Source: a virus. From it: a stretch of DNA of 64,000 nucleotides. The notes beneath the pieces are model-generated. The model was not told where the DNA came from. It did no database searches and worked only from the letters and a program-made list of their open reading frames with translations. Positions 1-12,800 of this stretch are shown here, in pieces (within the stretch, counting starts at the first letter, position 1; the number at the start of each line of letters is the position of its first letter). A program made the position numbers and the translations under genes. The stretch is taken from IMG/VR virus record IMGVR_UViG_3300026488_000013, positions 32,001 to 96,000 of that record, one strand, 5' to 3'.

Positions 1-1
1 T

Positions 2-112
2 TTTAAACAAATGAACTAATAACATTACATTTATATATTCCTCTATTTTATCTTCCGATAATCCCTTTATAGTTATCAAATTTATTTCTCTAATACAATC
101 TGTATAGCCCAT
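2..112 (-). CDS. Partial hypothetical protein (MGYTDCIREINL..., runs off window start)
   Basis: ATG at 112 lies just downstream of the TACGGATAA motif (122-130); frame is open to the window edge. Confidence 0.55.
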   Translation of the reverse strand, partial: MGYTDCIREINLITIKGLSEDKIEEYINVMLLVHLFK

Positions 113-263
113 GCACTTTTATTATCCGTATAAATTAATCTAACAACAAAAAAATAATGTTAATATGATATATATAATATATTAAACTGTGTTTATCTTT
201 AAAAATTAAAACTCGACATTTATGGATATAATAAAGTAACAAAAAGACTTTGGAGGTGGAAAA

Positions 264-404
264 ATGTTGATGTGCGAGAAAAATCACAGGTTTAAGACAA
301 TTGTGTTCTACGTTAAGCCAGATAAGAAGAAATTAAAAAAATACAAAGAAAAAGGATGGAAAACGTTCTATAGAAACAAGAAAGGACTAATAGTGCCTAT
401 TTGA
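264..404 (+). CDS. Small basic hypothetical protein (46 aa, MLMCEKNHRFKT...)
   Basis: GGAGG RBS at 252-256, TATGGATAT motif at 221-229; too short for the ORF track. Confidence 0.65.
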   Translation: MLMCEKNHRFKTIVFYVKPDKKKLKKYKEKGWKTFYRNKKGLIVPI

Positions 405-567
405 TTTTTATCCTTTTATTTTTCTTATTTATTTATGAAAATTAAATAATTATACAAACAAAAAGAGACACCCTCATTTTAACAAATATTCAAATTCTTC
501 AACCGCATTACAGCAGGCCGGTCTTAATCGCAATATTCCAAAAAAACGAAAAATGGAAAAGTATTTT

Positions 568-822
568 TTAAATTGAAATACATTTCGAATATTTTTGCGG
601 ATATTTTTTATCTATCATTGTTTTAATCTCTTTTATTTCTTTAATTAATTTTTCAATGACTTCAATGATTTTTTGTGGCTCCATAGGAACATTATATTTG
701 AATTCCTCATCGAAATATATGAGGTCAATATTTTCTTCTTTATACTTAATACCTAATCCTGTTGAAAACCTTTTATCTATTTTAATACTTTTCTCGATGC
801 ACTTTTTTAACAATCCATTCAA
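568..822 (-). CDS. Hypothetical protein
   Basis: ORF overlapping the upstream gene, typical K/E/I-rich composition. Confidence 0.55.
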   Translation of the reverse strand: MNGLLKKCIEKSIKIDKRFSTGLGIKYKEENIDLIYFDEEFKYNVPMEPQKIIEVIEKLIKEIKEIKTMIDKKYPQKYSKCISI

Positions 823-979
823 TTATCGGATGAATAAAGTCTCTGAATTTCCTTCTACATAATTCGCAATCTATTTTCCCAGTGATTTCTATAGTGTCAA
901 TTTCTTTTTTGTTTTTAATACATCTCAAAATAGCTCTATAATCCGAATAATTTTCCCTAACTATTTCGATTTCTAGCAT
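782..979 (-). CDS. Small hypothetical protein with CxxC
   Basis: TACGGATAA motif at 989-997 directly upstream. Confidence 0.65.
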   Translation of the reverse strand: MLEIEIVRENYSDYRAILRCIKNKKEIDTIEITGKIDCELCRRKFRDFIHPIIEWIVKKVHREKY

Positions 980-1051
980 ACTGTTCTATTATCCGTATTT
1001 GAATTTGAAAATTTAAAACACACTATGAAGAATAAGAGTAAAACTAAAGTC

Positions 1052-1075
1052 AAACCCGCCATTAAAATGGTGGGT
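1052..1075 (-). terminator. Putative intrinsic terminator after the membrane protein gene
   Basis: CCCGCCATT-AA-AATGGTGGG hairpin, followed on the minus strand by U-rich sequence. Confidence 0.5.
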
Positions 1076-1142
1076 AGTTGAACCATATTAATTTAATAAT
1101 TATTGATGAAAAAAACAGAATATTAAGACAAACCAACACAAA

Positions 1143-2723
1143 TTAATTTGACCATTTGCTGCCCGGTTTCAAATTATTTATATCGATGATTTGTTCGATT
1201 GTAATATCTTCTGCGGAATAATCATAGTATGTTCCATTATTTAGCACAATTAACCAATGAGTATTTCCGTTCTTTACATATTTAATAATAGTTTTAATCG
1301 TTGATTCATGAATTTTAGAATCTTCTGTTTTGCCATTTTTACCTAAAAGAAATTTTTTATACAAATATTTATTATCGAAAATCAAAACATTCCCGTCTTT
1401 TGAATTAACTAATGTTATTTTAGCTATTCCCGCCCCGTTTTTGGGAATAACTATATATCTCCAATATAATTTATCGCCTTTAACGATAGGTAGAGGTTCC
1501 ACTATTTCAAATCTATTCCAATCAAAAGTTGGTAATGCTTTCTCTACATATAGTTTACCTTTCTCGGGGCCTATATGTGGAACTTTAAATTTATACTTGT
1601 ATAGTTTTCCTTCCATTGACGCAACAAATATTGTGGAAATACCATATGCTTTTCCAAATGGCTCAACAGCGAATAACCAGTATAATTTTTTATTCGACAT
1701 AATTAAATAGGGTTGCTTGTTCAAACAATTTGAATCACAATCTGGAAGTTCTATCATATCTTCATGATAGAACAATATATTCATAATATTAGAAAATACC
1801 CCATCCTTCCAATAGTTCTGTGACTCTATTATTTCCCTAGCTAGTTCCATCGGATATATTGGAGCGTCCTTAAATTCGGTTAAAAGTTCTTCAGGTTTAT
1901 AATGTTTAATATTTCCTTTCTCGTCTATCACTACCGCACCGGCCCAATACGGAACAGTGTAAAACCATTTAAATCTATATTTAATCTGAGGAACTATAAT
2001 ATATATGTGCTTATTTTTAATAACAACTCTAGGTTGACCATAATCTGCGAAATAATCGAATTTATAAAGCTTCCAATATAGATTATCTGTTATCAATTGA
2101 CCAGGACTATATTCCAATTTACGCATATCACTAATTATTTCCCTATCAACCGTATCTACGGGCACCAGAAATACTCCTTTCGACTTCAATATAAAAGAAT
2201 TTATTAACCCATCCGGTTCTATAAAACTATACCAATAGATTCTATCATTGAAAGCAGTTATATTAACATTATCTATGGTATACCTGGGAAAGTCTATAGA
2301 CGTAATCAAATATGCATATGCTACTTTCCTTGGCAATATTCTAATAGGGTCTTTTTTCGTTATTGTTAATTCGTTTATATTATTTAAATGTTTAGGAGCA
2401 TTAATTTTATATAATTCATGCTTAGTTAAAACATTCGCTACTACTAATAATATAATCCCCACAGGTATCAAAATGAAAGTGGTGAAAAAAGCATCAAAAC
2501 CATCAATTTTGCCAATAATGCTTAAAATAGTTATTAGTGTTAGAATGATGGCACCATACAACAGTATTGGATTTTTATAAAGTAGTATTACAATGGGGTG
2601 GAAAATTGGTGATAATACAAATAGTGCCGCAAAAACTACCATAATAAATACCAAGAGAAACAGTTTTTGCTTCATCCTAAAACCTCCCTGAAGCATAATA
2701 AAGTTTATATTACCCATAAACAA
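1143..2723 (-). CDS. Membrane protein (N-terminal TM helices plus large soluble domain); probable start 2675
   Basis: Three hydrophobic N-terminal segments; GGAGG at 2683-2687 before ATG 2675; TATGGGTAA motif at 2710-2718. Confidence 0.8.
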   Translation of the reverse strand: MFMGNINFIMLQGGFRMKQKLFLLVFIMVVFAALFVLSPIFHPIVILLYKNPILLYGAIILTLITILSIIGKIDGFDAFFTTFILIPVGIILLVVANVLTKHELYKINAPKHLNNINELTITKKDPIRILPRKVAYAYLITSIDFPRYTIDNVNITAFNDRIYWYSFIEPDGLINSFILKSKGVFLVPVDTVDREIISDMRKLEYSPGQLITDNLYWKLYKFDYFADYGQPRVVIKNKHIYIIVPQIKYRFKWFYTVPYWAGAVVIDEKGNIKHYKPEELLTEFKDAPIYPMELAREIIESQNYWKDGVFSNIMNILFYHEDMIELPDCDSNCLNKQPYLIMSNKKLYWLFAVEPFGKAYGISTIFVASMEGKLYKYKFKVPHIGPEKGKLYVEKALPTFDWNRFEIVEPLPIVKGDKLYWRYIVIPKNGAGIAKITLVNSKDGNVLIFDNKYLYKKFLLGKNGKTEDSKIHESTIKTIIKYVKNGNTHWLIVLNNGTYYDYSAEDITIEQIIDINNLKPGSKWSN

Positions 2724-2788
2724 AAGTTTAACAACAAAAATAATTACATAAAAAAGAAAAAAAATATAAAAATAACTAAGCGAAAATT

Positions 2789-3211
2789 TTATTTTATTAT
2801 TATTCCATATCCGTTTATTGTCTCATATCCATTATATCCTTTAATAAAATATTCAACAATACCACAAATTTGAATTACTAATAATTTAGGTATAATTATT
2901 CTTTTGTTTTCATCGTCTATTTTAATTATTACATCATCAATTGTAATATCATTATTTAATTCTATTATTTTTCTCCCACATTTTTTACATCTTATAATTG
3001 ATTTTATCATATTTGGAACCTCATCTAATTCATCAGCTATCAACGAACCTGCTGAGCAGTTGTATTCACCAACAGTTTCGTCATCGTCAATGTCTTCATT
3101 TTCTAAATCTATTGTTTTCTTTCCTTTATATTTCATACAATATACTTCTTCATAATATGTTTCAATTTCATTTATTTCTTTACATTTCGGACAATAAAAC
3201 ATTTTCTCCAT
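2789..3211 (-). CDS. Zinc-ribbon protein
   Basis: CPKC ... CKKC; promoter motif at 3221-3229. Confidence 0.75.
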   Translation of the reverse strand: MEKMFYCPKCKEINEIETYYEEVYCMKYKGKKTIDLENEDIDDDETVGEYNCSAGSLIADELDEVPNMIKSIIRCKKCGRKIIELNNDITIDDVIIKIDDENKRIIIPKLLVIQICGIVEYFIKGYNGYETINGYGIIIK

Positions 3212-3325
3212 GTTATATAATTATCCGTATTTAGTTAAAAAAAATGCAGCTTATGAAGTTATTTTAATTCGCTTATTTTAATTAACTCTGGCTACAAGTT
3301 TTTTATCTCAATAAGAAAATTAAAA

Positions 3326-5341
3326 TTATTTAAAAAATTCTATCCACAGGGAAATTGTTATAACAATTGGTTTATTACTTTTGAAATACTCTAGTATTTC
3401 ATCTTTACTTATCTTGACAAATTTACCGTTAATATATAAATGCGGCGCCGCCTTTGCATCAAAAATAACATTAAAATTTGGGATTATGGGTTTTAAATTA
3501 TTCAACCTTCCGGATATTGCAAACTTAATATTCGGTTTAGAAATTATTTCTTTTAGTAATTCTTTAATCTTTCTAATACACTTTGTATATATGTTGTTAA
3601 CAATTAAATCTTTCCTAATTGTTTGTCTTACAATAGTTGCAGTATCATTTTCAATATTAACCCGAACTATATAAGACATTGCTAAATTTCCGCCTTTATC
3701 ATATCCATTTAATACATACAAATTTCTCCCCTTTTTAAAGAACGCACCGGTTAGATTATTAACTTCATGGAATTTAATCATATCCTCAGACGCTTCGTAT
3801 TCACCAATCTCAAAATACAATTCATCACATGAGATTATTTTGAATAATTCGGATAACAATTTCTGATTTTTAGTTTCTTTTAAAATATACCGTATAATCA
3901 AATTTTTCCATAATTCCTTTTTATGTTCATTTTTCCATTCAGCATCAAATATTTTAAATGTTCGCATTTTATTTTTTCTTTCGAATTTTAGTTTAACATC
4001 AGCTCTCTTTAACAATGTTTCTAAAACTTCAATTGTATTGGCGCCGTATTTATCCGCCCACAGTGTTGAGTGCCAAAATATACTATCATATTCTACTGCC
4101 AATTTTAATTCGGGAATGTATAAATCCCAGCTATAAGTTTTATTCCCAATAACAAATTTCTTTTCCGAGACGAATGTTAAATTAAATTGTTTTCCTATTA
4201 TTTCCTTAATAGTATCGGTTATTTCTGCAATTACTAAATTTTGTTCAACTGATTTTCCTTTAGAGATTTTTTTCATGCAAATTGGACAACCGAATAATTC
4301 CTCCGGCATGGCATTAAAAACTTTCCATTTATAAAAATTTTCCAAACTTAATGGTCTATATTTCGTATAAGTTATTCCATGGCGATTACATTTCATTTTA
4401 ACCGATTTACCATAATATCGTTTAATGTAATCTAAAATATTTTTTATATTTATAAATTTGTATCCATTTTTTAATGCATATTCATATAACAGCTTATCAA
4501 ATTTAATTAACTCATCCGCAGGAACATTATATTTATCTAACAGTTCAGAAACAATTTTCCTATGTTTTACAGAATTAACCAATTTGGGGTTGAGAACTTT
4601 GTTAGAGATTAACAATTTCTTTCTTAGTTCGATTATTTTATCGTAAGAATTTCTATTCTCTCTCATTTTGACAGATTTAATTTTTCTTATATGTTCAGAG
4701 TTATTTGGGTTATTTTCTCTAAAATATTTAGTGGTTTGTTCGATATATTTTTTATAATAATCTGGGAAAAATATTTTAACGGGATAATTTTTAATTTTCT
4801 TATAACAGCCGCCGCAGGAATAATCGAGTATATACCTGTTAAATCTAGAAATATTTCTTCCGCATATTTTACATCTATATTTTTCCTTATTTTCTATCCT
4901 ATCAATAAAAGTATCCGTAAGCATCAAATATATCAAATGTCTAACGGTGAATTTCTTGCCAGAAATAAAATTTTTTCTTATTTTTGTCAGCACTTCTCTA
5001 TTAATATTAAATTGTTTTAATATCTTTTCCAATTCGTCAATATCTAAAGCACTTAATGAATTTTTATTCGCCTCGTAATTTGAAATTTCTGGATTGATTT
5101 CTCTTTCAATAAATGAATAGTATTTTTTAAATAAAAATTTTGGCGTAATAATAAAAGCACCGCAGGTTTCACATAGAATTTTTTCTTTATTTATGAATGT
5201 ATTTCTATCAATTTTTAATTCAGCACCACAATCCCAACAACTAATTTTATAAGACATAGGGAATTTCAATTCTTTAGGATGAAGTATCTCTAACTCATCC
5301 ATTTTATTTAACTCTTTCGTCAGCTTTCTCTCTTCCACCAT
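3326..5341 (-). CDS. Free-standing Hef-like homing endonuclease (Vsr/DUF559-type PD-(D/E)xK) with multiple Zn ribbons
   Basis: CWDC/CETC, CKIC/CGGC and CNRHG...GCPIC Zn modules; nuclease core WDLYIPELKLAVEYDSIFWHS...IFDAEW; C-terminal FHEVNNLTG domain typical of Hef-like proteins. Confidence 0.8.
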   Translation of the reverse strand: MVEERKLTKELNKMDELEILHPKELKFPMSYKISCWDCGAELKIDRNTFINKEKILCETCGAFIITPKFLFKKYYSFIEREINPEISNYEANKNSLSALDIDELEKILKQFNINREVLTKIRKNFISGKKFTVRHLIYLMLTDTFIDRIENKEKYRCKICGRNISRFNRYILDYSCGGCYKKIKNYPVKIFFPDYYKKYIEQTTKYFRENNPNNSEHIRKIKSVKMRENRNSYDKIIELRKKLLISNKVLNPKLVNSVKHRKIVSELLDKYNVPADELIKFDKLLYEYALKNGYKFINIKNILDYIKRYYGKSVKMKCNRHGITYTKYRPLSLENFYKWKVFNAMPEELFGCPICMKKISKGKSVEQNLVIAEITDTIKEIIGKQFNLTFVSEKKFVIGNKTYSWDLYIPELKLAVEYDSIFWHSTLWADKYGANTIEVLETLLKRADVKLKFERKNKMRTFKIFDAEWKNEHKKELWKNLIIRYILKETKNQKLLSELFKIISCDELYFEIGEYEASEDMIKFHEVNNLTGAFFKKGRNLYVLNGYDKGGNLAMSYIVRVNIENDTATIVRQTIRKDLIVNNIYTKCIRKIKELLKEIISKPNIKFAISGRLNNLKPIIPNFNVIFDAKAAPHLYINGKFVKISKDEILEYFKSNKPIVITISLWIEFFK

Positions 5342-5350
5342 ATTTAAAAA

Positions 5351-5359
5351 TTATCCATA
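5351..5359 (-). promoter_or_regulatory. Phage promoter-like motif TATGGATAA for the endonuclease
   Basis: Same motif and spacing as found before many other genes in the window. Confidence 0.65.
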
Positions 5360-5365
5360 AAGGTA

Positions 5366-5485
5366 GCATTCAATGCAGACTTTGATGTAAATGTCAAATA
5401 AAAACTTGACAAAAAATAAATAGATAAGCGGAAATACAGATAGAACAAGGACTTTAGGAATGGTTTAATGCGGATTTAGATGTAA
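5366..5485 (+). repeat. Two imperfect direct repeats resembling RNAP catalytic-motif codons (AFNADFD, WFNADLD)
   Basis: 5369 TTCAATGCAGACTTTGATGTAA vs 5464 TTTAATGCGGATTTAGATGTAA (18/22 identical); both inverted relative to the gene's own TTTAACGCTGATTATGATG at ~5545-5563. Confidence 0.8.
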
Positions 5486-7411
5486 TATGATGGAACTCAT
5501 ATCCGCAAATTCAATAATGACACGGGCTTGCGAAACGCTATCACCATCATAATCAGCGTTAAAACTTTCAACTATCAATGGGTGTATTTTTAAAGTATAA
5601 TCTTCTTTATTAGTATTTATTTTTGCATCGTAAACTATCATCGATGGCTCCCATAGAGTTGGTTGCCTATTTATAAAGGAATATAGTTTTATTCTTCCTT
5701 TATTAACATTATACGCAAACAAATCGAACAGAAATTCTATATCTTCCAATATTTGTTCATCCGTTATATCCAGCTCTTTGGGGCTTTTTGCACCATATTC
5801 TAATTCCTGATATATCAGTTTTATTAAATATGTAAAATATTTACCATTATCTTTTAATTTGATTTTATTTAATTTCTTAATCATCGATTTCGGTGCGACA
5901 GGTTTCTGAACTATTACATCACATGGAGTAAACTTTTTATATTTAAATAGTGTATATAATCTTCTAAGAAATATCAAAAATTCCATTTTGAATATTTGTC
6001 TGGCTGTATAATATGAAACCAATATTTCATATGGTTTAACCTCTAATGTTGGAGTAATTACATTTCTGGCGGAAAAATCTATAGTTTTTCCTATTAGAAA
6101 CTGTCTCACCAAACCTTCCTTTTTACCTAATTCGGAATCTAATAATTTTGAGACATATTTTATATACCATTGTTGAAGTAAATTAACTTGTCGTTCCTGC
6201 GTAAATATTTCTGGTATGGTTAGATTTTCTAAGTTTTTATCCAGATATTCTTTATTTTCTTGACAATATTCAAATAATGTATAGACGCCGCCGTGGTGTG
6301 CGTATCTGTAATAATACTCTGAATATTGATTATAAGTTATAAACGGTTTATAAATAAACCTATCAAATTGGCTAGAAATTTGTTCGGTATTTGTTTCATG
6401 ATTTTTTTTACCATCTGAAGTGGGAATGTTTATAGATACAGATAACTTATGAGGATTATCTGTTAATTTCTCAAATTTCTCATTCATTATCACTATTTGT
6501 GTTAATATTCTATCATAATCACTTCTATATAATTCGTCCCCCACTATCATAAATTTTCTAAGCTCCGCAGTTATCACCGGAATAATTATAGTTATCGAAT
6601 TTATCAAGTGTGTAGGGTATTTAAATTTTAGAATATATTCGTTAAAAATTTCTTCGTTAGACAATATCGCATATATCAATGTATATAAACCGAACGCAGG
6701 TTTTGATAAAACATAGGTGTCCTTATAATATTCCCAAGTATATTTTTCATTATCTTTAATTAGGTCATATTGTAATGCAAATTCGTAAAATTTATTGAAA
6801 AAATCCTTATAACTGGTTTCTGCTATTAATTCTTCATACTTTTCCTTTATTTTATTATTTCCGCTTATTAGATAAAACTTTATTCCTTCGGGCGGCTCAA
6901 ATCTTTTCTTTTTTCTATTAAACAGCAAAAATTGATAATCTAAAATTATTTTATTCATTAATGACATAAATGTTTGTTTTCCGCCTTTTAATATTCGGTA
7001 TATCTCGCTGAGTATCAACGGATTAAATACAGGATAATTTAAATTTATAAATCCGTGATTTCTGGAGATATTTTGTTTATAATCCATTACTACGCCGCAA
7101 ACTTTGCATTTCTTTCCATATCCCCTTGTTAAACCACACAAACAAGTTTTGGAAGTAGTTCCGAATATAGACCACGAATGCAATCCTTTAGGGTTAGGTA
7201 TATTTTTACCAAATCTCTTTTCAATATTTTCTACTATTTTATCTTTGAGTGTAGGGTCTTTTATTTTCTCAAAAAACTCCAATTCATTAACATCTTCTAT
7301 TAATATCTTCGAAGATTTTATTATCTTGCTCGATTCATATTTCTTATATGGGTTAGAAAACAATGAATATAGGAGCTCTAACTTTTCCAACTTAGTTTCA
7401 AATTCCATCAT
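5465..7411 (-). CDS. Phage multisubunit RNA polymerase beta' subunit, N-terminal/catalytic part
   Basis: Zn finger CLC...CKVC; GKKEGLVRQFLIGKTIDFSARNVI; NRQPTL; HPLIVESFNADYDGD catalytic motif. Confidence 0.93.
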   Translation of the reverse strand: MMEFETKLEKLELLYSLFSNPYKKYESSKIIKSSKILIEDVNELEFFEKIKDPTLKDKIVENIEKRFGKNIPNPKGLHSWSIFGTTSKTCLCGLTRGYGKKCKVCGVVMDYKQNISRNHGFINLNYPVFNPLILSEIYRILKGGKQTFMSLMNKIILDYQFLLFNRKKKRFEPPEGIKFYLISGNNKIKEKYEELIAETSYKDFFNKFYEFALQYDLIKDNEKYTWEYYKDTYVLSKPAFGLYTLIYAILSNEEIFNEYILKFKYPTHLINSITIIIPVITAELRKFMIVGDELYRSDYDRILTQIVIMNEKFEKLTDNPHKLSVSINIPTSDGKKNHETNTEQISSQFDRFIYKPFITYNQYSEYYYRYAHHGGVYTLFEYCQENKEYLDKNLENLTIPEIFTQERQVNLLQQWYIKYVSKLLDSELGKKEGLVRQFLIGKTIDFSARNVITPTLEVKPYEILVSYYTARQIFKMEFLIFLRRLYTLFKYKKFTPCDVIVQKPVAPKSMIKKLNKIKLKDNGKYFTYLIKLIYQELEYGAKSPKELDITDEQILEDIEFLFDLFAYNVNKGRIKLYSFINRQPTLWEPSMIVYDAKINTNKEDYTLKIHPLIVESFNADYDGDSVSQARVIIEFADMSSIILHLNPH

Positions 7412-7514
7412 CTAATTCTATTATCCGTAATTGAAATATAAAGTAATAATGATAATTGTTGGCAAGTAATTCAAATAAAAAATAAAATTTGAAAACAAAA
7501 AGTATTTCGTTTAA

Positions 7515-8096
7515 TTAATGTTTGGGTCGTATTATAAATTTAATTTTGAATTGTTCTGTATTAATGTTGCGTCGAGTTATTTTGGCTCTAGGGTCAAGTA
7601 TAATTGTTTTATCGTCAAATTTATCAATATTGAACACTAATTTATACAATTTGTTAATTTCAATGTCTCCTATAATATATCCATTCTTTGTTTCAGGGGT
7701 GGAAATCAACAACAGCATTGTTTCGTGAATAACTAATTGTTCAACATTAGTTGGGTGTTTTTGTAAAACAGGTTTTATAAAATCTCCTGTTTGTTTCCTA
7801 TATATAGTAACACAATCCTTTTCAATAAGTTCTTTCAACGAGTATTCAACTATTTTTTCATCACCGTTTTGTTTAGATTCGGTTTTGGTTTCCCTATTAA
7901 ATCCAACCTCCTCTTGTCCTTCTTTTGTTACTTGTTCTTTTTCTGTCATGTTTTCAACCTCCCTCTTTTGATAATCGTTATAATTTTTGTCTTGTTGAAC
8001 TATATCTTCTAATTGTAAATCTTGAAATTCTTGCGATTTTTCCCTACTTTCAACTATAACTTCTGTATTTTTTCTCTTGCGACCTCTTTTTGCCAT
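7515..8096 (-). CDS. Hypothetical protein with charged N-terminus
   Basis: ORF with AGGAG RBS. Confidence 0.75.
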   Translation of the reverse strand: MAKRGRKRKNTEVIVESREKSQEFQDLQLEDIVQQDKNYNDYQKREVENMTEKEQVTKEGQEEVGFNRETKTESKQNGDEKIVEYSLKELIEKDCVTIYRKQTGDFIKPVLQKHPTNVEQLVIHETMLLLISTPETKNGYIIGDIEINKLYKLVFNIDKFDDKTIILDPRAKITRRNINTEQFKIKFIIRPKH

Positions 8097-8157
8097 TTAA
8101 AACTCCTTTTAATTATTACTGCTTTTTGAAACTTTTTATATATTTGTTTCATCATCT

Positions 8158-8841
8158 TCACACAAAATAACTTTTTATAAAATTGAGTTTGTTTATATCT
8201 GTCACAATTATTTCGGAATTAGGAATTTTCCTTAACAACTCATGTTTTGGGAAAATATTCGGCTTACTTATAAAATTAAGTATTTCATAATCATAATATG
8301 TCTGACGTGGGATTAAATTATTTCGAATTTTATTGCTCAAATATACATTAAACCTTTTTACTGTATCATTATTAAATTTTAAAACTCTATTTTTTAAATA
8401 AACTAAGTTAGTTATAGTATAAACATGTTTGCAAACCCAAGGGATTTGATGCGGATTTTTCTTTTTGGGTGGAATATTTAAAAAAGGGGATAAAAATAAT
8501 TCGTGATACAATATTGAATTTAATTTATTATGTAATACATATGCAAATGTATATCTGAAATCCGGACATGAACAATATACTTTCAATTTTTGGTTAGGTT
8601 TAGTTAGCATATCACTGTTTTTATCCATTAAAGATATTGAGGTGTAATAATGTGAGCCGAAATTCTCTTCAGAATAAACGATGAAATTCAATGCATTATA
8701 TTGTTTGTTATATGAAAACAAATACACTGCATGTTTCAATCTCAGAAATGACTCATAAGGATGCCTATTCGTATTTTTTCTATTAACAAAATATGATGGT
8801 ATTGTTAATATACTTGATAATTTAATACCGCCGCCGGTCAT
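8158..8841 (-). CDS. SWIM-type zinc finger protein
   Basis: CSCPDF ... VCKH. Confidence 0.75.
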   Translation of the reverse strand: MTGGGIKLSSILTIPSYFVNRKNTNRHPYESFLRLKHAVYLFSYNKQYNALNFIVYSEENFGSHYYTSISLMDKNSDMLTKPNQKLKVYCSCPDFRYTFAYVLHNKLNSILYHELFLSPFLNIPPKKKNPHQIPWVCKHVYTITNLVYLKNRVLKFNNDTVKRFNVYLSNKIRNNLIPRQTYYDYEILNFISKPNIFPKHELLRKIPNSEIIVTDINKLNFIKSYFV

Positions 8842-9728
8842 TTAGTTAAATCGGAAGGTAATAATATCTCATTTCTGAAATATTTATAAAACCTTTCCAA
8901 TTTTAAAAAAACTTCTTTTACGTCAGAAGGCCGTGATACAATATATGGATACCCATTTATCATTAGATACTTGTTAATATACTTAGTAAAATCTCGAAAT
9001 ACTTCATAAACCGAAACTTTACCATTTATATCAATATCAAAGTAATTTTTTATTACTCTTGATAACTTGCCGCCTTTTTCATAAACATGTGTATGAATTA
9101 AATAAAAATGAATCTTTCTATCCGCTATTGTTGGAGCATTTGTTAATCTATAACCTCCGATAGCAAAGTTCTCATATATTTCGTATAGAAAAACTTCATA
9201 CAATTCGGGTGGAATATTCGAGTCATTATTTTCAAAATATGAACTTATAACATCTGCCGATTTTTTATTTGTTAAAAAGTTTAATAATAAACCAGGGTTT
9301 AAAATTTTTGTTACCATTTGTTCCATTCCATTTATAACCGATATTTTGAATTTATATGTTTGTTCGTCATAAACATCTTTCTTATTTTCTATTTTCTCCT
9401 TTTCAATCTCAATATATTCTTGGAAAGATTTTTTAAGATTTAATACCGTATCATCAATATCACTGACCAACTGTTTATCAATTTTTTCGCCATTTAAAAT
9501 TCTTCTTTCTAATTGTTTTATTAAATCCGAAATAACATCAAACATTTTAAACAATTTATCCCTGGAATTGGGCGGCGGGAATAACACTGGCTGAATATTT
9601 GTTATTTTCTGCGATGTGTTCACATATATCTTGTTCTTGTAAACATGCGGGGAAACTGAAATAAGCATTTGTAATTGATTATCTTTTAAAATAAAAAATT
9701 TGTTAAAAATTTCTGTCTGCTGTAACAT
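8838..9728 (-). CDS. Hypothetical protein
   Basis: GGAGG RBS; 4-bp overlap with the next gene. Confidence 0.8.
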   Translation of the reverse strand: MLQQTEIFNKFFILKDNQLQMLISVSPHVYKNKIYVNTSQKITNIQPVLFPPPNSRDKLFKMFDVISDLIKQLERRILNGEKIDKQLVSDIDDTVLNLKKSFQEYIEIEKEKIENKKDVYDEQTYKFKISVINGMEQMVTKILNPGLLLNFLTNKKSADVISSYFENNDSNIPPELYEVFLYEIYENFAIGGYRLTNAPTIADRKIHFYLIHTHVYEKGGKLSRVIKNYFDIDINGKVSVYEVFRDFTKYINKYLMINGYPYIVSRPSDVKEVFLKLERFYKYFRNEILLPSDLTK

Positions 9729-9873
9729 CGAAATCCTCCTTCAAAACGGATTTTTATTTTTGTAAAATTAAAGAAAAATTGAAAAAAATAACAAAACTTT
9801 ATTTTTATTTTAATTTATAGCGAGGGTTGTAGCTGACTATTATACAATTTATTTCCATATTAAAAATAACAGG

Positions 9874-12800
9874 TTAGTCAACATAATACTTTTCAGAATA
9901 GTCTGAAATATCAATTACTGAATGGTTCATAACTTTTTCTATCAGTCTGTCAAACATTAAATCTGATTTATCATTAACAACTGCGGCGGTTACAGTATTA
10001 GATATTGCAGAAATTGCGGCGGTTGTGTTTTTAGTAATTTCGGTAGCCGTTTCCTTAACACTCTCTCTCATTTTATCCACTACATTGTTAAATGATTTAT
10101 TTAATTCCTTAACATTTTTCTCAATAGATGATGATATTTTCTCAGATACAACCGTGGTATAAGTGGAAAATTTAGCTTTAACGCTTTGAATATATCTTTC
10201 TTCCAATTTTTCGTCATTAACAGTGTTAGAATTTTGAACAGGAGACCTCATAACTTCTTCTTTGTATTCGGGTGCGGTTTCGTCAGTAATTTCGTTCGAT
10301 AATATATTCGGGACCAGGTTTTTATTGTTACCCTGTTTTAGATATTTTTCTAATTTAACATATTTTTGTGTTATAGATTTAGCATGAATTTCTTTTCCTA
10401 AAGCAGCAGATATTGATTTGCTAATATCTGATTCTTGTTTTTGAATAAGTTGTTTTATTTCTTTTATATAACCACCATACCCGGCGCCCTTTAGTGAAAG
10501 CAACAATATAGTAATTGCATCAGATTTTACTAAATTATCCGGGATATTAGTTATATTTTTATCAGAAATTTCTTTAATCCGTCTGTTAATTATAGACGCA
10601 GAAATTATTGCAATCTCGTTTATTAATTTTTCAAAATTGATATTCCTCAATTCAGAATATTCTTTTTTAAGTGCGGCCGTTCTTATTAAAGTTAAATATC
10701 CTTCAATATAATTGTTTATATTTTCTACATATTGTTTAATAGCATTATTCCTTGTAACTTCCGCATGTGAAATTGCGCTTTGAATCACAGAGTTATATTT
10801 AACATTTTCTTTCAATTCTTCACCAGTTTTTTTCAAATTAACTATCGTCATTAGTTCTGGGTTGCGTCGCATAAATTCCTTAGCTATTTTTTTACCAACA
10901 AAAGGAATTGATGTAACAAATTTAACAAATTTATATTCAATCTCTACAACAACCTTGTGAATATATTCCGTAATTTTATTCACAATATCCGATAGAATTT
11001 CCTTGAACCATTTTACAGCAGAAATTATTGGCTCTAATATTCTTGAAAATATTTCCTTAATTTTTTCTACAAACTGAACAATAAAATCTCCTATTTTTTC
11101 CAACGGCGTAAGAATATTACCAATAAACCTTAATATTACATTATCAGATTCTTTTAACTCTTTTATTGTTTCGGTAAGGGCACCCCATAAAATTTCCAGA
11201 ATATTTAACGGATTAATAAAATTAATAATTTTTAAAATAACATTTCCAATTTCCTTAATAATGTCCCAGATAAATTTTCCTACAGACTTAACAATACTCC
11301 ATATTTTCGAAAGAATTGGTTTTCCAATATCATAAATTAAAAACGGAGCGTTTATTAATCTATCAAGCAACATATTCAATCCATCGATAAATCCTTCAAC
11401 AATCCCTTTACCCAACCCATAAATAAAATCTGCTATAGCGGTAATAACAGCTCTCGGTAAATCCCAAAATATAAATTTAAAAATCCATTTTATAACATCT
11501 ATTGCGTATCCAATAATAGTAAAAATTAAATTATCTTGTTCACCCTCTATTTCTTTTTTATGTTTTTCACTTTCTGCTACAAATAAATTTTTAATGAATT
11601 CTAATACACCATTAATTATTGTTATTGGAAGTGATATGATAAACATAAAAGCTTTTGTTAGATAGCTGGAAACGGTTTCTCCCAATGCTTCGGCAACAGA
11701 AGACGATTGAGCTTGTATTTCTTTGTGTATTTTATTTTCATCTTTAGAACCAAAAATATGGCTGTAAACATTTTCAATAAAATCTGCCAGTTTTAATCCT
11801 AAAGAAGCTCCAATTGGTGATAATATCATTGAGAGAATTAACCCCGGTAAACCGCCAAACGCCCCGCCAACAACAGCACCAACTCCACCACCCACCAATG
11901 CACCAATTGTTCCGAGGATTTTATGCAACATATCGGTATTTTCATCAAATGTGAAAAATGTTAGAACTGCATTCAACAATGAACCTACTCCGAAACCACC
12001 AACAAAACTGTTTTTAATTATTTGTGTTGTTTTTGAGAATATACCTTTAGCTATTTCCTTTTTACTTACATTTTTTCCGTCTCCGCCACCGAAACCTAAT
12101 AAACCAGATAACCAGTCCCAAATGGAACTCCCGGTGCCTGAAATAGTTGAAATAGCAGATGTTAATCTATCTGTCATAAACTTAACAGTATCAGTAAATG
12201 ATTTCTTAAGTATATTAAATCCACCAACAATATGTGTATCCAGTGAATATACACCTTTAGATATTTCGCCGAGCAGTTTTACCATTTTTTCAATATTGGA
12301 ATAGAATTTTTCTCTTAATATTTTTTCTTCTCTTTCTTTCACAGTAATTACCGAATCTTCTTCTTTTACACTTTTAAGAGATTTTATTTTTTTCAAATCA
12401 TGAATAATTAATGAACCAATTTTCTCCAGAATGATTTTTTCATTTTTATCCAAAATAAACTCTTTTTTCAAATATTCGTCTGCAACTTTAACTAAGCTGA
12501 TAGTATTAATAATCAATTCACTGACATTTTTTATTTGGTCTTTATTTAAAACAATTTCGCCGGGCGACAACATCGCAACAACAGTATCTTTATACTTATA
12601 TATGTCTGATTTGGATGCTTTTAAAGATGTAGTTTTATTGAAAGTGTTTTCTTCTACAATACCGCCTGTAGAAAAATGAGGTGCACCATGTCTCAAAGAA
12701 CTAAACACTGTATATACAGTATTTCCAACTGCAATCGGGACAGAATTTATTATTTCATTAATAACAGTCTGAGGTAAATATATATTCTCCTGTCGTTCTA

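Follow-up and report, generated by a model that had tools for sequence, protein, structure and literature searches.

The stretch of DNA analysed here (the window, 64,000 nucleotides) comprises bases 32001-96000 of the 167-kb IMG/VR virus record IMGVR_UViG_3300026488_000013, whose source is a jumbo (giant) phage with multisubunit RNA polymerases (RNAPs). At the junction between the gene for the N-terminal part of an RNAP beta' subunit (beta'N) and a homing endonuclease gene behind it lie two short antisense copies, A and B, of the codons for the catalytic motif FNADxD(G). Judged from the alignments, these copies very probably keep the nucleotides that determine the amino acids of the motif, but not its wobble bases, and this pattern is conserved in nuclease-bearing relatives. 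Our favoured reading, to which we give somewhat less than an even chance, is that A, and probably B, are mimics of the homing site that the nuclease binds in the style of the I-TevI operator, the homing site being presumed to consist of the NADxDG codons.

The setting of the copies is itself unusual. The beta' subunit of one RNAP is, with high confidence, the product of two genes, broken right after NADYDGD by what appears to be an atypical split intein, whose N and C fragments are here called IntN and IntC. The record (about 28% G+C; completeness 60% by CheckV estimate) carries pieces of two multisubunit RNAPs. Beside the window, the comparison set consisted of five nuclease-bearing loci (L013, L010, L012, L011, and L197) and two nuclease-less loci (L192 and L194). 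The features of the locus are listed below, in window coordinates except for the last.

3326-5341, minus strand: homing endonuclease, 671 amino acids, with N-terminal zinc ribbons, a Vsr-like core, and a C-terminal domain (tblastn matches: Hef of phage U5, Hef-like genes; PHROG homing endonuclease)
3875-4249, minus strand: Vsr/EDxHD-type PD-(D/E)xK core of the nuclease, about amino acids 365-489 (model, structural superposition, and conserved columns)
5350-5359, minus strand: phage promoter-type motif TATGGATAAT, 8 nucleotides before the nuclease ATG
5369-5390, plus strand: copy A, antisense mimic of FNADxD(G) codons, between the TTGACA element and the promoter motif; 12 of 14 informative positions match the own site
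5392-5397, minus strand: TTGACA element directly upstream of copy A, kept in the window, L013, and L010 (alignment)
5464-5485, plus strand: copy B, antisense mimic of FNADxD(G) codons, overlapping the last six IntN codons and the stop; 12 of 14 informative positions match
5465-7411, minus strand: beta'N-IntN gene, 648 amino acids (Pfam Rpb1 domains 1 and 2; PHROG RNAP subunit; homologues end 24-33 amino acids past DGD-S)
5468-5539, minus strand: IntN, putative 24-codon N fragment of the split intein, first residue Ser (tail homology, alignment with a mini-intein-like paralogue, and predicted docking)
5540-5563, minus strand: own catalytic-site codons FNADYDGD (FNADYDG at 5543-5563), the last N-extein codons and presumed left half of the nuclease homing target (translation)
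G000:C1:113643-116111, minus strand, outside the window and 76 kb from beta'N: IntC-beta'C gene, 822 amino acids (Rpb1 domain 5)

Antisense Copies of the Catalytic-Site Codons

The true motif NAD.DGD occurs once in the 167-kb record, at the own site, and in a six-frame translation of the record the shorter pattern NAD.D occurs three times, as the true site, A, and B; both copies lie within 200 bp of the true site. A sequence-only reading of the window had placed the copies on the plus strand, with the own FNADYDG codons facing them on the minus strand, and had noted that the four differences between the copies fall at third codon positions of an otherwise closed frame. All of this holds, with the copies at 5369-5390 and 5464-5485 and the own codons at 5543-5563: A and B are identical at 18 of 22 positions, the four differences all follow a period of 3, and the mimic frames, which read FNADFD (A) and FNADLD (B), contain stops in both copies and a start codon in neither. 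When only first and second codon positions are scored against the own-site 21-mer (14 informative positions), a match of at least 12 of 14 is reached at 4 of about 334,000 genome positions, two of them being A and B, which leaves a genome-wide background of 2 of about 334,000 positions.

L013 has both copies, likewise separated from its own site by 58 and 154 nucleotides. In L010, copy B is present and reads FNADYDG, while A has decayed to 8/14; the 58-nucleotide spacing between own site and B is identical in three lineages. L012 has a single copy (LNADKDR), 22 nucleotides before the nuclease ATG. The copies in the window (two), L013 (two), L010 (one), and L012 (one) match their own sites at 12-13 of the 14 informative positions and at 1-4 of the seven wobble positions, the latter being about what chance would give, and no position elsewhere in these four loci reaches 12/14. 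Copies are absent at the L192 and L194 loci, so that among the loci compared they are found only beside nuclease genes. The sequence-only reading had expected the copies to accompany orthologous nucleases and to be missing from nuclease-less relatives; L192 and L194 lack them, L013 carries both, and L010 carries B and a degenerate A.

Conservation of the copies exceeds that of their surroundings. Between the window and L013, B is identical at 21/22 positions and A at 19/22; the corresponding figures are 36/54 for the IntN codons flanking B and 36/66 for the spacer, and the nucleases are 51% identical. In the tail frame that overlaps B, second codon positions vary (HLNPH versus HHNLH) while the mimic nucleotides stay, and the places where the tail sequence differs are precisely those at which the mimic permits variation; B also uses the minority codons CTA (Leu) and CCG (Pro). 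Since wobble positions match at chance level while 12-13 of 14 informative positions are kept, the selected feature appears to be a DNA (or RNA) word made of those nucleotides of NADxDG that the genetic code fixes. The mirror frame (SKSALN) was also considered as coding sequence and was dropped, as it contains a stop in L010. Wider pattern searches yielded 96 matches to the copy-B pattern in viral contigs, none adjoining a DGD motif, and 100 stretches matching a DGD-Ser...B pattern in metagenomes, with no relevant locus among the 80 inspected.

The copies could instead be relics: an inverted duplication of the target would have arisen once, through invasion or break repair, with B kept as IntN codons and stop and A as promoter spacer, neither acting as a mimic now. 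Neutral decay of this kind should hit first and second codon positions like the third, yet four lineages with nucleases about 51% identical keep the informative positions, and the amino acids of the tail vary just where a mimic could afford it. The L012 copy lies at a different distance and is again placed just before the nuclease start. These points make the relic explanation unlikely in our view, even though B is coding and the modelled end of the tail touches IntC, a further promoter of the nuclease's class shares its flanks with copy A, A has decayed in L010, and two type II nuclease loci have no copy at all.

The sequence-only reading proposed another origin, in which the copies are captured alleles of foreign phages or of host rpoC, serving as decoys or guide-like antisense RNAs, with the self allele immune by recoding. 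Differences from the own site at wobble positions would accord with this, and a phage homing endonuclease directed against a rival RNAP gene is documented (PMC11620839). However, the copies are 17-18/19 identical to many unrelated phage alleles and lie within the natural allele cloud, so a foreign donor cannot be named, and to call the codons foreign is unwarranted. With a host rpoC, chance alone would produce a match if that gene were AT-rich. Nor is the self allele recoded in the sense proposed: the own site retains every informative nucleotide and differs from the copies as natural alleles differ, with F and Y both present among own sites and among copies. The enzyme, moreover, is of the protein-guided PD-(D/E)xK type, with no RNA-guided partner and no conserved RNA structure. 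Taken as a whole, capture of foreign alleles is very improbable. Self-protection is more likely explained by the split in beta', because the intein removes the right half of any ancestral target.

The beta' Gene and Its Split Intein

The sequence-only reading recognized a beta' gene beside the nuclease; the gene is present, but the intein split at this exact point was overlooked. The beta'N protein stops 24 residues past NADYDGD, and Ser opens this tail. Relatives of beta'N (36%-50% identity), retrieved by exhaustive HMMER profile search, all terminate 24-33 residues after DGD-Ser, with alternating hydrophobic residues in their tails, and Ser directly follows DGD in the window and in 8/8 aligned relatives (invariant S106 of the alignment). 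No beta'N homologues came from a single-protein locus search, a word-based homologue search, or phage tblastn, and a nuclease alignment scan for more clade members yielded none. Of 80 phage and virus relatives at greater distance, nearly all are uninterrupted, the motif being followed by TMA, QMA, or EMN.

The missing part of the subunit is encoded 76 kb away. The IntC-beta'C gene begins with 165 residues ending in VVQD, followed by Thr and MAQYAINTVEAKQD (MAQYA...) and then by Rpb1 domain 5; the Thr-MAQYAINTVEAKQD continuation corresponds to the region 3' of the catalytic motif in contiguous relatives (TMA/QMA, 80 relatives). The first 165 residues match the Pfam family PF14890 (Intein_splicing) with an expectation value (E) of 3.8e-6 over profile positions 18-153 of 155, at 27.2 bits, which is below the curated 35.8. 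Among solved structures in the PDB they match DnaB mini-inteins (E = 8e-4); this alignment runs from intein residue 31 through the last one and includes blocks B (with its His) and F/G. The final residue of IntC is Asp instead of the usual Asn. IntC thus lacks only the first strands, which fits what a 24-residue N fragment would supply.

IntN and IntC are predicted to assemble into one Hint fold. For the modelled complex of IntC with the 24-residue tail a score of 0.79 was obtained, and the best of three controls stayed at 0.00; this mark was attained by 58 of 80 solved complexes and by 2 of 110 mismatched pairs. Separate runs share at least 68% of contacts, and the partner has a predicted local distance difference test (pLDDT) value of at least 61. 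As solved split-intein structures exist, the docking score is a measure of likeness rather than proof. Together these data make it highly probable that beta'N carries a Ser-initial N fragment of 24 amino acids and that the distant gene supplies a 165-residue C fragment (ending VVQD) followed by Thr and the normal beta' continuation. Trans-splicing of the beta' halves is a candidate reaction, with Ser1 and Thr+1 as putative nucleophiles. The idea that the tail is read-through into an inserted element was dropped, since relatives have homologous tails.

The same VQD|TM junction is found in L194 and in L195, both nuclease-less. In these two, the IntC-beta'C gene lies 1.8 kb downstream of beta'N-IntN, with three small genes between (L194:4001-9737), an arrangement that may be closer to the state preceding dispersal of the halves.

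A second beta'N paralogue lies outside the window (G000:C1:7330-9348; L002:607-2625, minus strand). Its sequence reads ...LGAD, followed by a Cys-initial, Hint-like stretch of about 165 amino acids ending in KKQ and then by CDGN; an ORF-free stretch of 1.9 kb (ORF, open reading frame) follows the CDGN. The inserted stretch aligns at its start with IntN tails and, in its middle part, with the beginning of IntC; by its sequence it resembles a contiguous mini-intein placed within the catalytic motif. No Hint domain was detected by Pfam in this paralogous beta'.

The Free-Standing Nuclease and Its Promoter

The 671-residue nuclease is encoded directly behind beta'N, after a gap of 123 nucleotides, and is very probably a Hef-like free-standing homing endonuclease of the Vsr/EDxHD kind, with its own phage-type promoter of the class found at RNAP-subunit genes. 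The sequence-only reading had likewise called it Hef-like, and both tblastn and the fold of the core agree: it matches Hef of phage U5 (E = 8e-6 over amino acids 403-538) as well as Hef-like genes from T4-like and Campylobacter phages, 8e-6 being the lowest E among these matches. In a model of residues 340-560 the core has pLDDT values of 70-89, and by VIA-align it superposes on 3hrl, a DUF559-type endonuclease (Z 9.6), on the catalytic domain of I-Bth0305I (3r3p_A; Z 8.9, root-mean-square deviation 3.1, 97 residues aligned), and on Vsr (1cw0; Z 8.9). The D...E.D....H columns are conserved, with D67, E78, and H85 invariant in five aligned sequences. Foldseek by itself is weak for the core (E at least 0.018), and a PDB sequence search with it returned chance matches only. 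The PHROG assignment, Hef matches, Vsr-like superposition, and invariant acidic and His columns are what lead to the classification; site-specific cleavage beside the insertion point is presumed, as is the homing site itself.

A nuclease gene lies directly behind beta'N in six loci, comprising type I (window, L013, and L010) and type II (L011, L012, and L197), and none is present there in L192 or L194. Type I nucleases are 51%-52% identical to one another, and the L013 and L010 orthologues occupy the same position as that of the window. Directly 3' of the nuclease (window 2789-3211, minus strand) is an ORF of 140 amino acids with two CxxC pairs (zinc-ribbon-like) and no family match. Outside the window, a second Hef-like nuclease of 695 amino acids (G000:C1:1061-3148; L004), 33% identical over the core, is located directly 3' of a 417-residue beta'C fragment that stops in the trigger-loop region.

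The promoter motif that the sequence-only reading assigned to the nuclease is real and recurrent: about 15 genes, among them beta'N, a beta-N gene, and the IntC-beta'C gene, have TATGGATAAT 7-10 nucleotides ahead of their ATG. In the form TATGGATAWT the motif likewise stands 7-10 nucleotides from the ATG and is not accompanied by a Shine-Dalgarno sequence; it probably represents a phage promoter class giving near-leaderless mRNAs. Copy A lies 9 nucleotides upstream of the nuclease motif. The promoter of a beta-N-like gene outside the window (G000:C1:15950-15990) has the flanks of copy A, ATTTACAT ... AATGCTA, followed by the promoter motif, without the 14-nucleotide NAD core. The nuclease promoter may be derived from an RNAP-gene promoter into which the mimic was inserted.

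Possible Roles of the Copies

Homing endonucleases are proteins known to read conserved coding DNA despite wobble change. In the operator reading, the nuclease would recognize the invariant nucleotides of NADxDG-coding DNA, the only sequence near the insertion point that target phages cannot change. It would bind A and B as mimics of a homing half-site, without productive cleavage. Copy A lies between TTGACA and TATGGATAAT and so occupies the place where a repressor would sit; binding there would repress nuclease transcription. A DNA loop could let copy B, situated 95-97 bp (about nine helical turns) further upstream, cooperate as a second operator. The own copy would be spared from cleavage chiefly by the intein split, which puts other sequence in place of the right half of the ancestral target. 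The limitation of the copies to nuclease-bearing loci fits such a role. An operator-like function beside the promoter motif had been suggested in the sequence-only reading and, given the I-TevI precedent, is the best explanation available.

Several observations weigh against it. The NADxDG homing site is itself presumed, and binding and cleavage are predictions only. The copies mimic the left (N-extein) half alone, and a search of the whole genome revealed neither a mimic of the C-extein start nor one of the IntC end. The specificity of I-Bth0305I resides in a 14-bp pseudopalindrome read by a nuclease dimer, not in a distal asymmetric site. As the flanks of copy A are common to the beta-N gene promoter, part of A may be mere promoter; as B is coding and the model sets tail residues 121-128 against IntC, the conservation of B may be partly at the protein level. 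The type II nuclease loci L011 and L197 are without a mimic, the codons adjoining the paralogous nuclease have no antisense mimic at that locus either, and the sample consists of three or four lineages only.

The constant 58-nucleotide spacing between own site and B in three lineages admits a different use, in which the two face each other as a bipartite inverted target of a dimeric nuclease that cuts in the IntN spacer, the phage's own genome included, to promote recombination or co-conversion. The family prototype, I-Bth0305I, is a stable homodimer with a footprint of about 60 bp and a palindromic target, but the span required here, about 100 bp, exceeds the known footprint. Hef and SegH reportedly cut their own DNA as well; cutting an essential gene of one's own would nevertheless be costly. 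Because A is a direct repeat of B rather than its inverted partner, and L012 has a promoter-proximal copy only, we regard real substrates as improbable.

A further scheme joins the own site with the backward-facing B and A in a three-site architecture, with a once-selfish nuclease that has been domesticated, either to regulate by looping DNA or to guard the catalytic-site codons in cis. This could couple expression of the split beta' half to that of the nuclease, or keep the nuclease and rivals off an essential sequence that cannot be changed; we consider it a doubtful extension with a small chance of being correct.

Under control at the level of RNA, the timing of translation would be set in read-through transcripts by base pairing of the A and B complements, either to the NAD codons or to the nuclease start region. 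In its minimum-energy fold, the window does pair the own site with B, but the z-score of this fold (-0.77) is no better than that of shuffles, and a three-sequence consensus fold loses this pairing. A stretch of 12 nucleotides, 92% complementary, links 5484-5495 (IntN codons) with 5333-5344 (the nuclease start codon region), a pairing of start region and upstream RNA that is significant in the window only; L010 has a 9-nucleotide perfect counterpart. Such control would be akin to that by the hairpins known to precede free-standing endonuclease genes, which are frequent in fractured genes (PMC2677866). No covariation against the own-site wobble bases was seen, and the mismatch at nearly every third base would reduce helices to 2-5 bp. 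RNA control is accordingly given a low probability.

Of the two hairpins described in the sequence-only reading, both exist in the window and neither is kept in L013 or L010. The guide-like RNA suggested there is not upheld: there is no significant or conserved structure, and the copies mismatch the own site at nearly every third base. A search of Rfam gave a lone match, a chance small nucleolar RNA far below its threshold. The locus does not resemble an RNA-guided nuclease system either, having no Rfam family or conserved structure and, as its sole nuclease, a protein-guided fold. The idea of the copies as a group I internal guide was dropped. Group I intron covariance models gave no match at E up to 1 in window positions 1-12000 on both strands; of the small P1-like hairpin that follows A, L013 has a counterpart and L010 has none.

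Relation to Known Systems

The operator of I-TevI, from the td intron of phage T4, was identified through 15/20 identity to the homing site (Edgell et al. 2004, reviewed in PMC2988022); it overlaps the promoter, and I-TevI binds it as it binds the homing site but cuts it about 100-fold less (PMC2988022). The present locus is similar in having a homing-site look-alike at an endonuclease promoter, here with 12-13 of 14 informative positions matching a presumed homing site, and the expected outcome would be the same, binding without efficient cutting. It differs in the family of the enzyme (Vsr/EDxHD rather than GIY-YIG), which is free-standing at a split intein instead of residing inside an intron. 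There are also two copies, both inverted with respect to the target and one within coding sequence, and their binding is putative.

The nuclease resembles I-Bth0305I, the EDxHD family, and Hef of U5 in its Vsr-like fold (Z 8.9), its acidic/His motif, and its similarity to Hef (E = 8e-6); in contrast to I-Bth0305I and Hef, it has 671 amino acids, and zinc ribbons replace the NUMOD helices. Another mobile nuclease tied to a jumbo-phage RNAP gene, and potentially harmful to rivals, is PhiPA3 gp210, an intron-encoded HNH endonuclease that nicks the PhiKZ RNAP gene gp178 (PMC11620839). Nuclease family and vehicle differ in that case, and at the present locus the association with an RNAP gene is what is seen.

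The intein resembles naturally occurring atypical split inteins with very short N fragments. In AceL-TerL, GOS-TerL, and VidaL, the N fragment has about 16-37 amino acids, and block B and the later blocks are in the C fragment. The present intein shares the short N fragment and the placement of block B and all later blocks in the C fragment; unlike those inteins, it has Ser1 and Thr+1 as nucleophiles, a final Asp rather than Asn, and the catalytic subunit of an RNAP as host, and its splicing is predicted. If active, the 24-residue N fragment with its Ser/Thr nucleophiles would be a candidate tool for peptide-protein ligation.

In fractured genes, a free-standing, Vsr-like endonuclease separates the two halves of a split-intein gene; eight host enzyme types are listed, RNA polymerase being unmentioned (Dassa et al. 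2009; PMC2677866). The Vsr/EDxHD nuclease family was originally reported from such genes, and I-Bth0305I is its characterized member. We found no report in the literature searched of a multisubunit RNAP catalytic motif assembled from two genes by a split intein, and RNAP beta' would be a new host for such inteins. As in fractured genes, an essential phage gene is broken at an intein, and a free-standing Vsr-like endonuclease with its own control elements is located at the break. The host gene (RNAP beta') and the atypical N fragment of 24 amino acids set the present case apart, and the halves are not in one locus, the nuclease lying behind the N half and the C half 76 kb off (1.8 kb in the nuclease-less L194).

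A conserved, untranslated element that keeps only the code-fixed nucleotides of a target would be the sequence footprint of a homing endonuclease that reads a coding site. If binding is true, Vsr-like free-standing nucleases at split inteins would also follow the operator principle of I-TevI, and such footprints would predict homing sites from sequence alone. The locus combines two known kinds of arrangement: a split-intein gene of the fractured type, here that of RNAP beta', and an I-TevI-like mimic of the target.

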